Below the pieces are notes generated by a model. The model was not told where the DNA came from and did not search any database. It saw only the letters and a list, made by a program, of their open reading frames with translations. DNA of 60,843 nucleotides, the filler included, from Candidatus Woesearchaeota archaeon CG1_02_57_44 (GTDB lineage Archaea > Nanobdellota > Nanobdellia > Woesearchaeales > CG1-02-57-44): the NCBI GenBank assembly GCA_001871415.1. It is 6 parts of 6 records of this genome, joined end to end, with 100 filler letters (N's around TTAATTAATTAA, not from the genome) between each part and the next. Parts side by side here need not be neighbours in the genome. Positions count along the whole stretch, not along the records: positions 39,081 to 44,444 come from MNWW01000021.1; 5 more parts are not named here. One strand, given 5' to 3'. The translations under genes were made by a program, and so were the position numbers. This document shows positions 4,252-60,794 of the stretch, piece by piece (positions within the stretch are counted from its first letter, which is position 1; the number at the start of each line of letters is the position of its first letter).

Positions 4252-5521
4252 GGGCACGCTCGCCGGCCTGCTGGGGCTCGGCCTGCTGCAAGCACTCTCC
4301 TTCGTAGCCCTGCTGCTCAAGGCGCGGCTGCTGACGCAGGCACAGTTCGGCACACTCGCGCTGGCCACGTCCCTGGTGCTCTTCTTCTCGGTCCTGGCGT
4401 CAGGGCTCTCTAGCACCCTGCTCCGGTACGGCTCGGTGCACGGGGCCCCGGCGGTCGTGGGCCTGTATCGCCGCAGCGTCGTCGGCCTCGCGGGTCTCGC
4501 AGGGCTGCTCGCGCTGTCCGCGCCATTCGTGTCTTCGTTGTACCATCTGCCTGAGATGACATCGCTCCTGCGGATACTCTCGCTCGGAGGGTTCTGCTCT
4601 GGCATCCTGCTCCTGCATAGCGGTCTGCTGCGCAGCAGGATGCAGGTCGTGTCGGACTACACTATCCAGGCGCTCCAGCAGACCGTCTTCCTGCTGCTCC
4701 TGCTCGCGCTCCCGCTCTTCGGGGATCGGCTGCAGGCATTCGCCTGGTTCTACAGCGTCTCGATGCTGCTCGGGGCAGTGCTGTCCACCTTCATCCTGCG
4801 TAGGGTACTGTCTGGCTTGGGCGTCCTTGACGACTCTTCTGCTCCAAAACCCTCTGGCATGTATGGCTTCGCCGCCACGCAGTCGCTCACCCAGCTTCTG
4901 GGGCGCTTCCAGGGGGATTTCATCCTCTTCGTGCTGGCCATGAGCCTCGCGCCGTCGCAGCTGGCACTGTATCGCGTGGCCCTCGTCGTCGGCCTTCTGC
5001 CGGGGCTGTTCCTGCAGGCGCTCAACAACATCTTCGCGCCGCTCGCAGGGCAGCTTGTCGCCAGCAGGGACCTATCGACCCTGCGCTCACTGCACGCGAA
5101 GGCGAGTGCCGTGCTCTTCTGCTGCTGGGCATCGCTCTTCGTCTGTTTCCTGCTGTGGGGCAGGCAGCTGCTCGGCATCTTCGGCGATGATTATCGCATC
5201 GCCTATCTCCCCCTGCTCATCATCGCCGCCTCCGAGGCAGTGGATCTCGGCGTGGGACCCTCAGGATACGTGGTGCTCATGATGGGGCGAGCGTCCCTGC
5301 TGCTGCTGAACACGGTCGTGCTTCTCGCGCTGCTTATCTGGCTCACCCTCGCGCTCGCGCCTACGCTCGGCGTGCTCGGGGGCGCCATCGCCTACGCCGT
5401 CAGCAATGTCCTCACGAATCTCCTGCGCCTCGCGGAGGCGCTCTGGCTGTACCGGCACCCCCCGCAGGAGCATATCGTGCCTGCGTCGCTTGCGTCGCCT
5501 GAGTCGCGCCCAGGGGTGTGA
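4223..5521 (+). CDS. Wzx-like oligosaccharide flippase (MOP superfamily)
   Basis: Many TM helices; ARLLTQAQFG start, LALYRVA, LLGIFGDDY, GVLGGAIA patterns typical of polysaccharide exporters. Confidence 0.8.
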   Translation: MEQSLTTLRKGTLAGLLGLGLLQALSFVALLLKARLLTQAQFGTLALATSLVLFFSVLASGLSSTLLRYGSVHGAPAVVGLYRRSVVGLAGLAGLLALSAPFVSSLYHLPEMTSLLRILSLGGFCSGILLLHSGLLRSRMQVVSDYTIQALQQTVFLLLLLALPLFGDRLQAFAWFYSVSMLLGAVLSTFILRRVLSGLGVLDDSSAPKPSGMYGFAATQSLTQLLGRFQGDFILFVLAMSLAPSQLALYRVALVVGLLPGLFLQALNNIFAPLAGQLVASRDLSTLRSLHAKASAVLFCCWASLFVCFLLWGRQLLGIFGDDYRIAYLPLLIIAASEAVDLGVGPSGYVVLMMGRASLLLLNTVVLLALLIWLTLALAPTLGVLGGAIAYAVSNVLTNLLRLAEALWLYRHPPQEHIVPASLASPESRPGV

Positions 5522-27300: not shown

Positions 27301-27639
27301 CTACTCTCGAGCAAGGAGCAGGTGCTTAATCAGCGTGATATCGGTTCTCATGTGGCGCAGCTCTCCGTTGATGCCGCTGATGTCCTGCTCTGTCCTCACC
27401 AGCCGGCGGTTCATGGGATGCAGATAGAAGTGCCACGCCCCGAACAGCACGATGCCCGTGCCGACGGCCCACTCAAACTCCAGAGGCACACCGAACGCGC
27501 TGAACAGCGGGTCCTTGGTGAGCATGCCCACAATCAGGAATGACGACGCGGCCAGGAGCAGAGGCATGGGCTCGCGCTTGAGGAAGTAGAGCAGCCGGGG
27601 GATGGCTATCAATGCCCAGAATATGGTGAGCAAGAGCAT
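27301..27639 (-). CDS. Small membrane protein with C-terminal coiled segment
   Basis: Three hydrophobic segments followed by a heptad-like tail. Confidence 0.6.
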   Translation of the reverse strand: MLLLTIFWALIAIPRLLYFLKREPMPLLLAASSFLIVGMLTKDPLFSAFGVPLEFEWAVGTGIVLFGAWHFYLHPMNRRLVRTEQDISGINGELRHMRTDITLIKHLLLARE

Positions 27640-27823
27640 GGTAGTGATGGATTGATAGTGGTATGTTACTGTTGCGCGAAGGACAGTAGATAGGAAAGTG
27701 CAAAAGTGGGAACTGAACGGAAAATAGCATCATTAGAAGGCTTAAACTCTTCATTTTCAAGATATGGTAGTGCGAGAGTCTTCTGTTTTCTCCTGTAATG
27801 TTGAATCATCCCATAAACTCTCC

Positions 27824-28028
27824 TCATTTTTTGATTATCATCCCTCCACAGTTTCTTTCTTTGCCTTTCTGGTTCTGGATTACTTTATTTTCATAAGAAT
27901 CTTTAATTTCTCTAGTTGAAGCCAATCTTGATTGTTTAATTAACTCATAAGTTTGAGTATTTGTGCTTATACCAATAAGTATTCTTATTACCCTTCTCAT
28001 TTGTTATAAATGTTACATCTTCGCTCAT
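27824..28028 (-). pseudogene. Deleted/frameshifted 5' remnant of a PLD-domain SNF2-type helicase-like gene
   Basis: ATG at 28028 reads MSEDVTFITNEKGN; another frame reads IRILIGISTNTQTYELIKQS...STREIKDSY; both resemble separated N-terminal segments of that family (recognition from memory). Confidence 0.5.
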
Positions 28029-28030
28029 TT

Positions 28031-29482
28031 TCACACCACCAGTAAAAATACCCATAAAGGTATCTTTACAATATTATCTTCTAAATCAAACTCGTCTTTA
28101 GTAATTATAATCCCAAAAGGAGAATCTTTTTCTTTAATAAATCCATTAATGGCCTCAATACTTTCCCTCGGGACTTTACTCCTATATTTTGATTCAATAG
28201 GGATAAGCTTTCTTTTAATTGGAAGAACAAAATCAATTTCCTTGCTATTTTTCCAATAAAATATTTCTGGCTCAGGTCCAGGTTCTATATTAAATTTTAA
28301 TCTTATTAAATGATCAAAAATAATGCTTTCAGCAACAATCCCCAATTCAGTAAAATCTTTTGATAAAGTATCATCTAAATAATCAACAACAGCATTTCTT
28401 ATGCCTGCATCAAGAACATAAATCTTATCCTGTTTCCTTATTCTTGCTTTTCTGCTTTGGGAATAAAATTCAGAGCTTTTAATTAAATAGGCCTTGGTCA
28501 AATATTTAAGATAATCTTTTAGGGTCGGTCTTTGTATATCAAGCACTTTTGCAGTTTTATTAATGTTAAAGTTAGTTCCTGAACTCTTAGCCAGTAATTT
28601 AAATAAATCTTCCAGAACCTTAGGATTTCTGATTTTAAAATATCTTACTATATCTTTAAAGAAAATTAATTTAATTTTATCTCTGATACTTTCACTTATT
28701 CTATTATAGTCATTAATATCTAAAAATTCGGGGTAACCTCCCATTATCAAATATCTGTTTAATTCTATTTCTATTTTATTTCTGTTAGGAGTCATAGATC
28801 CAATTAGCTCTTTTAAGGTCTGATGAAATATTTTAACATCTTTCTCTTGAACAGCCTTAACCAAAGACTCTTTTAGGTTCGTTTTAATTCCAGTATAATC
28901 ATCACTTACTATAGCTCTATATCTCAAAACTTCTGAAAACTTCAAAGGCATCATAACAGAAGTTTTTATTCTACCAAGTAAAGATTCTTCTGTTCCTTTA
29001 TTAATCCATATTGAAGAAGAACCAGATATAATAAACTTTAAATTATACCCTAGATCATACCAGTTCTTGAGTATTTTCTCCCAATGGGGCAATTCTTGTA
29101 TTTCATCTAAGAATAAATAACAAGACTCTTTTAAACTGTCTAAAGGGCTTTTAAGTATATATGTAGAATAAACTTCTAAAACATCTTTTAACTCAGCCCC
29201 TCCAGTATTGAGCTCAACTTCATCAGTAGAGAGATATAATATTCTTTTAGGGGCTATTTTGGAGTCTAGTAGCTCCTGAATTAGTTGGTGTATAAGTATA
29301 GTCTTCCCAACTCTTCTAGGACCTATAATAGAAACTATCTCTCTCCTTTCTAATTCTCGTTTAATTATATAATAGTCTCCCCTCTTAAAAGAACTTGTTT
29401 TTGATTGAGGAATTGGTTTGTCTCCCCACCAAGGATTATATTTATTCAAGACCCTTAACACTTCAGTTTCTGGAATTTCCAT
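28031..29482 (-). CDS. AAA+ ATPase (AAA_14 + DUF4143 architecture)
   Basis: NPWW, GPRRVGKT Walker A, FLDEIQ Walker B, ISGSS, GGYPE, KIYVLDAG, FYWK..EIDF..PIESK nuclease-like tail. Confidence 0.9.
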   Translation of the reverse strand: MEIPETEVLRVLNKYNPWWGDKPIPQSKTSSFKRGDYYIIKRELERREIVSIIGPRRVGKTILIHQLIQELLDSKIAPKRILYLSTDEVELNTGGAELKDVLEVYSTYILKSPLDSLKESCYLFLDEIQELPHWEKILKNWYDLGYNLKFIISGSSSIWINKGTEESLLGRIKTSVMMPLKFSEVLRYRAIVSDDYTGIKTNLKESLVKAVQEKDVKIFHQTLKELIGSMTPNRNKIEIELNRYLIMGGYPEFLDINDYNRISESIRDKIKLIFFKDIVRYFKIRNPKVLEDLFKLLAKSSGTNFNINKTAKVLDIQRPTLKDYLKYLTKAYLIKSSEFYSQSRKARIRKQDKIYVLDAGIRNAVVDYLDDTLSKDFTELGIVAESIIFDHLIRLKFNIEPGPEPEIFYWKNSKEIDFVLPIKRKLIPIESKYRSKVPRESIEAINGFIKEKDSPFGIIITKDEFDLEDNIVKIPLWVFLLVV

Positions 29483-30242
29483 GATGTATATTGTACTATT
29501 CAACGTTTTATAAACTTTTGTATTATATGTTATACAGGTTAAATGTATTTTATACTATACAAAGATTTATATATAAGTGTATATTATATTATACATAAAT
29601 AGACAGAGTATCAAAAACGATTCTCCGCAAAGATCCTCTCTCCTGATAATAGAGTCCGTTATGAACCCTACAATAGAAGAAATAAGAAGAGAACTTAATA
29701 AGACTTTTGAGTCTGTAGTGAGAAATGGGTTAAAACATCTTCTATACTTAAGAAATTAAACTTAGGCTTAGTAGAACAAATACCCTATTTTCAGTATGTT
29801 TATACAATCTTTGGGTTTTAGTTAATATTTGTGTGTCTCTTACTTTGTATGGCAGATTGTCAGAAAAGCCAATTATTACTTCTAAACTGTTTGCAGTTGT
29901 TCTTTACAAAGTCGCTTTTGAAGATCCTCCAACGTGATGGTTAATTCTATTAGTTATAGAATTGTTCTAGTTGGAACTCTCTCGTTTTCTAGTTATTTCT
30001 CTTACATTGTAACTTAAGTTTTGAACTTCTCTAAAATTCTCTTGAAACCCAGTGAGAACTAAGGATAAAATATTATAAATAGAGCTGTCCTACCTACTAA
30101 ATTAGTTTACTTTCCTATCTACTGAAGGATTCCGGAAGATCTGCGGGTATGTTGAGGGTATCAGGAGTAACTCTTGCGGTGGTGAAGGGTTCTGGCGTCT
30201 GTTGCCACCCGTGGTGGTATGTTTATGCTGGTTGACTCCTAT

Positions 30243-30405
30243 GGCTCTGTCCTGAATCTCATTTGACTATGCCAGCAGCGGGCTTCGGCGGCGTTTTCAC
30301 CAGTGACGGATTGACATCCCCGAAGGGGGCATCCCCCTGTCAATGCGCAACATGCAACACATCAGCCTTTGCAATTGCTGCTGGCTGGACTCTTAGGACA
30401 GAGCC
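30243..30405. mobile_element. 163-bp MITE of an IS5-family element
   Basis: TIRs GGCTCTGTCCT / AGGACAGAGCC; inner IR GCCAGCAGC/GCTGCTGGC; last 18 bp identical to the IS end at 44945-44962; flanks GACTCCTAT/GTCTTCTAT match at 7 of 9. Confidence 0.75.
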
Positions 30406-39080: not shown

Positions 39081-39278
39081 CGAGCGAAGCGAGCGCTGTC
39101 CTTGTTCTGGATCGACCATCTTGTTAAGAGGGTCGTTCGGGGTCCCCGGCAGCCGCCCCATTTTTTCCTCGTTCTTGCACATTCTTGCGGACCGGCCAGC
39201 CGAGCGAAGCGAGCGCTGTCCTTGTTCTGGATCGACCATCTTGTTAAGAGGGTCGTTCGGGGTCCCCGGCAGCCGCCC
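39081..39278. repeat. Direct repeat: 78-bp identical units at 120-bp period
   Basis: 39081-39158 equals 39201-39278; first copy is cut by the contig edge. Confidence 0.9.
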
Positions 39279-39285
39279 AACCAAC

Positions 39286-39319
39286 GGATACCCCTGCCTT
39301 CAGGCCGAGGAGGAGGTCA
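39286..39319 (+). mobile_element. IS200/IS605-like right-end hairpin remnant
   Basis: GGATACCCCTGCCTTCAGGCCGAGGAGGAGGTCA resembles the CCCC-GCCTTCAGGC-GGGG-AGGAGGTCA ends of tnpB elements. Confidence 0.5.
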
Positions 39320-39460
39320 TTGGAAAAATTCTGCCAAATTTAGATACTCTATTACTATGCTATTGCTTTTCCGCACGGCAATGCAATATCATCTGATAAA
39401 AAAATCAAAAATTATAAACTAATTAAAAAACTTATAAAATTAACAAAATCGTGACTAAAA

Positions 39461-44228: not shown

Positions 44229-44366
44229 TTATTGCAAAGCACGGGGTTGAATACCCCGTCCTTCAGGACGTGCTTTGCAATTCAAAAATCCGCCTGCAAT
44301 GACGAGGCGCGGTAATACCGCGGCCTTCAGGCCGCGGTTAGCGCCGAGTGGTGGATTTTTGTTATT
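44229..44366 (+). repeat. Dispersed double-palindrome element, copy 1
   Basis: Matches 49779-49916 (reverse) and 60659-60794 with one substitution. Confidence 0.95.
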
Positions 44367-49253: not shown

Positions 49254-49454
49254 ATGACCACCATCCAGCTCAGCACGGACGCGAAGGCACTGCTCGGCTC
49301 CTTTGGCACCAAAGACGATACATATGAGGATATCGTCCGGCGCGTCTGCGCCATGGCGGCAAAAGAGCAGCTGCGTCAATTCCTCATGGGCTCAGAGAAC
49401 ACCATCACGCTGGAAGAAGCCAGGCACAGGCACGATGCAACATGGTCGTCATAG
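49254..49454 (+). CDS. Small RHH-type antitoxin
   Basis: MTTIQLS...K..L.SFG.K.DTYEDIVRR; overlaps the downstream toxin; TATA upstream. Confidence 0.7.
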   Translation: MTTIQLSTDAKALLGSFGTKDDTYEDIVRRVCAMAAKEQLRQFLMGSENTITLEEARHRHDATWSS

Positions 49455-49783
49455 AGATTACCGAGAGCCTGTTTGAGGATATAGAAAGGACATTCAAGAA
49501 GGGCGCCACTGAAGTCTTTGATCTCATCGGCACGCTCGCAACCAGCCCAAAGAAAGGCAAACTGCTCGGCAGCGTCGGTGGCATTGTCATCAAGGAGCTC
49601 AAATACCGCAGCTATCGATTCTATTTCATCGCTGATGGATACAAGCTCAAGCTCCTTCGCGCAGAAGACCTGACTGAGCTTCTGCTACGATTCGTGCGCA
49701 TGTCTGATAAAAAGCATCAGCAACAGGTCATTGATGAGATAAAAGCAGTGCTGGTCAACATGGGCGCCCAGGGGTTCAAATAA
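49442..49783 (+). CDS. RelE-like toxin
   Basis: L..SPKKGK.LG, IKELKY.SYRFYFI. Confidence 0.65.
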   Translation: MVVIEITESLFEDIERTFKKGATEVFDLIGTLATSPKKGKLLGSVGGIVIKELKYRSYRFYFIADGYKLKLLRAEDLTELLLRFVRMSDKKHQQQVIDEIKAVLVNMGAQGFK

Positions 49784-49916
49784 CAAAAATCCGCCACTCG
49801 GCGCTAACCGCGGCCTGAAGGCCGCGGTATTACCGCGCCTCGTCATTGCAGGCGGATTTTTGAATTGCAAAGCACGTCCTGAAGGACGGGGTATTCAACC
49901 CCGTGCTTTGCAATAA
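49779..49916 (-). repeat. Dispersed double-palindrome element, copy 2 (inverted)
   Basis: Reverse complement of 44229-44366; its end overlaps the toxin TAA stop. Confidence 0.95.
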
Positions 49917-50177
49917 CACTACAGCTTCCCTATCGCCTCAAGCAGACGACGGTGTCCTTCGACAAGGCGCTGAAATTCCGCTTGCGTCTCTGGTGACAGG
50001 ACCATCGCGCCCTTACCTCTCGNNNNNNNNNNNNNNNNNNNNNNNNNNNNNNNNNNNNNNNNNNNNTTAATTAATTAANNNNNNNNNNNNNNNNNNNNNN
50101 NNNNNNNNNNNNNNNNNNNNNNTCCTGCGCCATCCGACCGCAACAAACATATACCAAAACCAAACTTGGCCACGATA

Positions 50178-60645: not shown

Positions 60646-60658
60646 CATCTTTTTTATC

Positions 60659-60794
60659 ATTGCAAAGCACGGGGTTGAATACCCCGTCCTTCAGGACGTG
60701 CTTTGCAATTCAAAAATCCGCCTGCAATGACGAGGCGCGGTAATACCGCGGCCTTCAGGCCGCGGTTAGCGCCGAGTGGCGGATTTTTGTTATT
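60659..60794 (+). repeat. Dispersed double-palindrome element, copy 3
   Basis: Identical to the copy 2 core; starts 14 bp after the hom stop. Confidence 0.95.

Follow-up and report, generated by a model that had tools for sequence, protein, structure and literature searches.

A gene-less 133-bp repeat of probable IS200/IS605 type in a Woesearchaeota-type archaeon

Copies, boundaries and neighbours of the repeat

The window, that is, the whole stretch of DNA analysed (60,843 nucleotides, filler included, from assembly GCA_001871415.1 of Candidatus Woesearchaeota archaeon CG1_02_57_44), contains three copies of a repeat on three different contigs, two of them past genes for ribosomal protein uS9 and a homoserine-dehydrogenase-like protein (Table 1). 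The assembly comprises 1.53 Mb in 77 contigs, the shortest of 5.3 kb, with 57% GC and a rated completeness of 82%, and encodes archaeal ribosomal and RNA polymerase genes. A preliminary description of the window had placed the copies at 44229-44366 (+), 49779-49916 (-) and 60659-60794 (+). These places were confirmed, but the ranges had added the left target word and one right-hand base to a mobile unit of 133 bp. Within the element, the three copies differ only by a C>T change at element position 120 of copy 1, which yields a G-T pair, so that pairing is kept, as had been proposed. Terminal inverted repeats are absent from all three copies, again as described; palindromes lie near both termini, an arrangement that fits a PATE and not a classical MITE, and the length is too short for transposase coding, as is usual for PATEs.

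Among the flanks in the assembly, 27 are distinct on the left and 29 on the right. The left word is TTAT in 24 cases, TCAT in 2 and CTAT in 1, and the right word is TTAT in 27 and TCAT in 2. The base after the right word varies, being T in 22 and C in 7 and thus a pyrimidine in 29/29 (background 57%, p = 9e-8), whereas the base after the left word is constant across flanks. The left TTAT therefore lies outside the element, directly before its start, and the right TTAT within it. For the same reason a 5-nt TTATT boundary was ruled out: the ends had been said to sit at TTATT (TCATT once), of which the last base belongs to the target, while the TCAT word to the left of copy 3 was borne out. A true 4-bp target duplication was also ruled out, as the left and right words are unlike in copy 3 and on contig C4 and a single word is found at empty sites; the apparent duplication of TTAT is the element's own end.

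BLAST of the assembly found the repeat on dozens of contigs, mostly near contig ends, and 33 full-length matches fell into 10 haplotypes, with five copies internal to contigs. The copy number was put at about 28-30. In sequencing run X1, which may be the source sample of the assembly, an 84-nt contig made up of the core of the repeat had a depth of 542 against 31-35 for flanking contigs, a ratio of about 16-18, in line with the high copy number that had been proposed from the window.

By crude ORF calls the copies are intergenic, often in T-rich gene ends. The earlier observation that each copy lies just 3' of a gene did not prove general. Of the 24 flanks that could be scored on the left, 16 have a neighbour that ends toward the element; on the right, 13 of 25 have a convergent one. 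For copy 2, the TAA stop of a convergent ORF (49442-49783) falls within the end word. Read on the opposite strand, the target word includes TAA, and in several cases a copy coincides exactly with the stop codon of a convergent ORF (window 49781-49783; contigs C15 and C74).

Table 1. Positions of the repeat, its parts and other features (window coordinates unless a contig is named)
Feature	Position	Strand	Remarks
PATE copy 1	44233..44365	+	133 bp; C>T at 44352; 97 nt past ribosomal protein uS9 gene
Left target TTAT of copy 1	44229-44232		
PATE copy 2	49780..49912	-	133 bp; right flank unique; left flank 49913-50022 common to 10 contig ends
PATE copy 3	60661..60793	+	133 bp; commonest haplotype; 15 nt past homoserine-dehydrogenase-like gene
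Left target of copy 3	60657-60660		Variant TCAT
Left domain, copy 3	60659..60709	+	12-bp outer stem, 60659-60670 with 60698-60709; covers predicted cut site
Left guide AATA, copy 3	60678..60681	+	17 nt inside left boundary; followed by CCCCGTCC-TTCA-GGAC hairpin; guide role suggested by covariation and IS608 rule
Right domain, copy 3	60711..60789	+	12-bp outer stem, 60711-60722 with 60778-60789, plus middle stem
Right guide AATA, copy 3	60742-60745	+	
Right subterminal hairpin, copy 3	60746-60765	+	
Right end word TTAT, copy 3	60790..60793	+	Inside element; same as target word
Empty target TTAT, followed by T	27885..27888	+	Filled in metagenome contig L163 (left junction)
Orphan right end of autonomous IS200-type family	39287..39320	+	GATA guide, hairpin, TCAT end; 34/36 nt match L162 right end
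MITE with terminal inverted repeats	30261-30405; contigs C40, C49, C53, C74, C76, C25		
Repeat of ~120-130 bp, further copies	C22:20610-20760; C44:50191-50342; C4:25813-25859		
Copies of the 133-bp repeat with short palindromic inserts	C4:3164-3345; C53:81264-81453; L069, L071, L072, L089, L092, L095, L102, L103		

Predicted fold and the guide rule at the ends

The repeat folds far better than chance, as RNA or as DNA and on either strand (z = -8 to -9; 0/200 shuffles equal). Both 12-bp stems and the left-half hairpins of the bipartite structure first proposed appear in the predicted fold. The hairpin GCGGT-AAT-ACCGC does not; it is mutually exclusive with a 9-bp hairpin around GGCC-TTCA-GGCC, which is predicted and covarying. 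At both of the element's ends, an AATA guide lies 5' of a CCTTCAGG hairpin and is accompanied by a TTAT boundary. The predicted cut site is hidden within the left outer stem, and the right end word is kept at a distance from its guide; to be cut, the fully folded form would therefore have to open.

When 13 right domains were aligned, 90.5% of cells paired and 17 of 27 pairs had changed on both sides; this covariation exceeded all 500 shuffles and all slid controls, a contrast inflated by kinship and by the structure having been drawn from the same sequences. Counted from the left cut site, as placed by the word that the guide predicts, the longest perfect stem measured 5-14 bp in 17 gene-less elements (median 11) against 3-5 bp in 19 autonomous ones. 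Locus L164 is a plain deletion derivative, with neither equal ends nor outer stems. Among the gene-less forms, long outer stems have been selected for.

Many copies contain short palindromic inserts of about 20-60 nt, between the halves or within the right stem, which resemble the small repeats that target PATEs in Haloquadratum. Loci L075 and L096 are forms of about 60 nt that retain the termini alone, a single hairpin flanked by two TTAT words, as would be expected from deletion between two similar hairpins.

In IS608, four bases 5' of each hairpin foot act as a guide that determines the cut sites (PMC3201880). The pairs described include A+16:T-3 and A+17:T-4, and the guide/word combinations are AAAG/TTAC and GAAT/TCAA (PMC3201880, PMC5934647). 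A pair at the fourth base is our own reading of these two combinations; with the guide pairs read so, AATA predicts TTAT. The +1 pocket of IS608 TnpA disfavours purines (PMC5934647), which the pyrimidine after the target in 29/29 flanks matches. Like IS608 (ISHp608) and ISDra2, the repeat has a four-base guide 5' of each hairpin, a predicted cut 3' of a tetranucleotide, a pyrimidine at +1 and an apparent strand bias; the distance from left cut to hairpin foot is 19 nt in IS608 and 21 here (PMC3201880, PMC5934647, PMC5027513). Unlike the repeat, IS608 encodes TnpA and has different end words (TTAC and TCAA, against TTAT twice here), and its right cut lies 10 nt from the hairpin, compared with about 28 nt here, beyond the outer stem (PMC3201880, PMC5934647).

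Sister families change guide and boundary together, as the IS608 rule predicts. A diverged family in the same assembly (family B) has CATA/TGAT at both ends in 3/3 full copies. Among 12 left ends that share their first 16 bases, 11 obey the rule (AATT/TTAA 8, AATA/TTAT 2, CATA/TGAT 1) and one does not (TATA/TGAT). Exceptions to the rule were seen as TATA/TGAT in L093 and L067, GATA/TTAT in L025 and L092, AATA/TCAT in L065 and L144, and AATG/TTAT in L107, as well as in the relative genome G392, where left ends TGAA, TGAC and TGCT occur with CATA, and in 3 of 27 left flanks of the present repeat (family A). At right ends 21 of 26 rows fit, a weak test since the search pattern limited the possible end words; of the five that did not, two are not IS ends, two were mis-anchored and one is a real mismatch.

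The same word stands at both ends in 16 of 18 two-domain gene-less families read by eye (13 TTAT, 3 TGAT), the exceptions, L077 and L162, having end words unlike at the fourth base, compared with only 2 of 22 complete tnpA-bearing elements (L025 and L031); the families are related, and these counts are hence not of independent events. In the open-access literature searched, work on Woesearchaeota and DPANN included, neither the repeat family nor equal end words nor the outer stems were found described, a point to which Table S9 of PMC3119063 may be relevant.

Relatives, a candidate helper and polymorphic sites

No tnpA, RAYT or TnpB was found in the 82% complete assembly with the Y1_Tnp, NF033573, RAYT and TnpB models or by tblastn with five TnpA relatives, so the transposase sought for in the preliminary description was missing there; a tnpA-only IS was found instead beside the repeat on a metagenome contig. 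Direct DNA search for the repeat gave a match in 1 of 40 relatives. The end motif was present in 26 of 401 genomes of the order, the source assembly included, and a reversed control pattern in 0; a TnpA query matched 48 of the 401. Close TnpA relatives came from Nanoarchaeota, Nanoarchaeia or Woesearchaeota records, plus two from Methanosarcinales. Complete tnpA-only elements have the same left-end type together with a GATA/TCAT right end, and in L060, L061, L094, L162 and L163 a GGG-guide-CCCC-hairpin left end and a hairpin right end occur as in the repeat, ends shared with an IS being another property of PATEs. The transposases of elements with shared ends pass the IS200/IS605 model NF033573 and fail the REP-transposase model (36-47 bits, cut-off 80).

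A pattern scan of metagenome contigs returned four loci. In one of these, L163, the repeat, with two substitutions, is followed directly by a complete tnpA-only IS200-type element, whose TnpA of 137 aa passes NF033573 with 98 bits (cut-off 55); a relative 53% identical to it matches ISDra2 TnpA structures (E = 1.7e-9). The same tandem arrangement is seen in L162, where a CATA-guided PATE adjoins a CATA/TGAT IS. The 280-nt left flank of L163 is 100% identical to window 27605-27884, and L163 is assigned to the same organism as the assembly. Judged from its sequence and position, the tnpA-only element adjoining the repeat is the likely helper. The right flank of L163 is absent from the assembly; L163 may be chimeric across the repeat, or may come from a strain with a different island, and the two private substitutions of its repeat argue mildly against a chimeric join. 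Remnants of such elements persist in the assembly, namely the orphan right end in the window (Table 1) and, on contig C44, a decayed left end of the helper-type IS (83% over 81 nt).

A conserved Y1-like gene of about 200 aa, possibly encoding a domesticated HUH protein, occurs in many genomes of the order (L037-L045, L048, L052). It has a conserved upstream leader, and no hairpin ends are present in the flanks shown.

Recent activity, as had been surmised, is supported by two sites that carry the element in one sample and are unoccupied in the assembly, where one TTAT stands; each was seen at one junction only and in contigs, not reads. The first is the empty target at the end of the L163 left flank (window 27885-27888). 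At the second, on contig C10 near 4981-4984, a loose end in run X5 (a 699-nt contig, depth 7.9) runs from a flank that in C10 lies behind a single TTAT into the right end of the repeat; a 28.6-kb contig of X1 and a 2,244-nt contig of X4 cross this site uninterrupted, and none of the pieces listed for run X6 covers it. Insertion at these two sites, each seen at one junction, is precise, 3' of a short target word and without target duplication, as in PATEs. For the three copies on contig C61, no empty allele was found in four runs.

A low-GC island occupies window 27889-30260 (27-32% GC versus 57%) and holds a 480-aa ATPase-like ORF (28034-29482, minus strand). It starts at the empty TTAT target and ends at a MITE with terminal inverted repeats; L163 differs to the right of the site.

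All six multi-copy contigs carry co-oriented copies. Of 39 contigs, 33 have more G than C on the strand of the element (p = 1.4e-5), one of the 39, C10, being a chance motif match; after correction for gene strand the figure is 27 of 38 (p = 0.014), and in both counts the contigs are not independent. IS200/IS605 insertion favours the lagging-strand template (PMC5027513), and the orientation with respect to GC skew is as would be expected for such insertion.

Identity of the repeat, alternatives and other repeats

The repeat is most probably a 133-bp gene-less IS200/IS605-type element (PATE) that is polymorphic within its population and whose copying, as single-stranded DNA, is likely the work of a Y1 (HUH) transposase from a separate tnpA-only IS; we place the probability of this reading at about 0.92. 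The preliminary description had suggested an archaeal, PATE-like substrate of an HUH enzyme, and from its options the evidence selects an IS200/IS605-derived PATE. It had also called the element possibly undescribed, which holds only in part: the PATE class was defined in 2011 from Haloquadratum walsbyi, with HqIRS46 as an example (PMC3119063), and the repeat thus belongs to a known class of selfish DNA, whereas the family itself, its equal landing word at both ends and its extra conserved stems were absent from the literature searched. IS200/IS605 is the commonest archaeal IS family (PMC13343696), and a PATE-like element has been noted in Halanaerobium (PMC7290912). Phage and plasmid collections gave no match to the repeat.

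As described for the H. walsbyi PATEs (PMC3119063), the repeat has near-terminal palindromes and no terminal inverted repeats, makes no target duplication and is too short to code; ends in common with IS200/IS605 elements, homogeneous high-copy families, strain-specific insertions, terminal-only core deletions (here L075 and L096) and small inserts (here C4 and C53) are likewise shared. It differs in host, here a Nanoarchaeota/Woesearchaeota-type archaeon from groundwater, and in parent, which is a tnpA-only element here and an IS1341/TnpB element there (PMC3119063). For an equal guide and word at both ends and a long outer stem in each half, no description was found in PMC3119063, whose Table S9 concerns PATE ends.

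By analogy with IS608 biochemistry, the following cycle is proposed. At a replication fork the top strand would fold, a TnpA dimer would bind the two CCTTCAGG hairpins, and each AATA guide would pair with a TTAT. The strand would then exit as a 133-nt circle, with the donor resealed, and the circle would enter 3' of a further TTAT(T/C). As the last bases of the element are its own target word, a fresh landing site is left by every insertion; the PATE-IS tandems in L162 and L163 would be explained in this way. In vitro, cleavage of IS608 is faster when double-stranded DNA adjoins the ends (PMC5027513); on that basis our best guess is that the outer stems supply double-stranded DNA beside the ends, and that they may shield the circle from nucleases and single-strand-binding protein and raise mobilisation in trans. 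That the left cut site is buried by a stem tells against a straightforward form of this guess.

More tentatively, and with more doubt than confidence, the gene-less forms could be an evolved class of hyperparasites across a DPANN order and not deletion leftovers, in which the right guide has come to match the left one (AATA/TTAT in some families, CATA/TGAT in others) and self-enclosing stems yield a closed, nuclease-resistant 133-nt circle that a borrowed TnpA handles better than its own ends. Were this so, every insertion would create a fresh target, and left ends could be combined at will with co-oriented right ends; the element would be a natural, minimal and reprogrammable single-strand insertion cassette, and would offer a general design rule for non-autonomous HUH elements.

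The PATE reading itself reveals no new chemistry. It provides an element that is live, an enzyme of the same organism as candidate helper, and guide swaps that occur naturally (AATA/TTAT, CATA/TGAT, AATT/TTAA and GATA/TCAT), and hence a test set for mobilisation in trans of gene-less IS200/IS605 elements in DPANN archaea and for the question of whether extra DNA structure helps. It also indicates that small-genome archaea can host about 30 active copies, which break assemblies, most matches being at contig ends.

One alternative competes with the PATE reading only on the reason for the stems: the element would have spread as a PATE, but its outer stems would be kept at the RNA level, as closed transcript domains, serving as terminators or 3'-end protectors, that would render insertions harmless or useful to the host. 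The intergenic position of the copies in T-rich gene ends is in keeping with this, as are the folding of both strands as RNA, the G-U-type single changes in stems and the share of C>T among the substitutions between assembly copies (6 of 13). Deamination of single-stranded DNA, however, would be expected to give a C>T bias as well. Moreover, orientation is not fixed with respect to neighbouring genes, it follows GC skew, and the stems begin and end at DNA cut sites. We consider this account of the stems unlikely.

It is very improbable that the right domain is an omega-RNA guide scaffold carried on a PATE and used in trans by TnpB or IscB, although omega-RNAs can be encoded by PATEs (bioRxiv 10.1101/2023.03.14.532601), the right domain, which ends at the boundary, shows strong covariation, and a weak match to sot0042 was obtained (E = 0.098; 14.6 bits, cut-off 88). 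Rfam search gave no family at the gathering cut-off, HEARO/omega-RNA included, so that no catalogued RNA was matched there; no TnpB domain was found in the assembly, and autonomous elements with the same ends have tnpA only. The absence of an Rfam family at cut-off, with boundaries that obey a DNA guide rule, also speaks against the mobile ncRNA that had been offered as an option. The PATE-like ISGst1-5 elements of Geobacillus stearothermophilus are similar in being gene-less and moved in trans, in the covariation of TAM/TEM with DNA guides and in tolerating flexible right-end spacing (bioRxiv 10.1101/2023.03.14.532601). They differ, according to the same preprint, in being tied to TnpB/IscB and omega-RNAs and in a TAM and TEM that differ at two positions; no link to TnpB was found here.

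On the REP option of the preliminary description, the repeat would be of REP/REPIN type and a domesticated RAYT enzyme would move it. A high copy number, an extragenic position, hairpins with a 5' tetranucleotide and HUH chemistry are in common with REP, BIME and REPIN repeats and their TnpA-REP (RAYT) enzymes, and related transposases do score weakly on the REP model. Those scores lie under the cut-off of that model, whereas the IS200/IS605 model is passed, no RAYT was found in the assembly, and the two hairpins are directly oriented and match the left and right ends of an ordinary tnpA-only IS; we therefore judge it highly improbable.

Some joins are assembler errors, since one 108-bp left flank is joined to 10 contig ends, that of copy 2 included, and three right flanks are each paired with two different left flanks; the left join of copy 2 is probably an artefact, and three partial copies of 87-88 nt (C26, C64, C71) are read as fold-back artefacts of assembly. 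Together with the many matches at contig ends, these joins might suggest one locus pasted onto many contigs, as the preliminary description had allowed for, but the distinct flanks, haplotypes, internal copies and core depth refute this for the family and leave it likely only for some joins, the left side of copy 2 among them.

Two further repeats were encountered. One, unrelated to the 133-bp repeat and about 160 bp long, bears the terminal inverted repeats GGCTCTGTCC...GGACAGAGCC, was found in at least 8 places and is a classical MITE. Another, of about 120-130 bp, is doubled at a contig start (window 39081-39278), and its other copies directly follow tRNA-like 3' ends, a short part of the end being duplicated at some of them.
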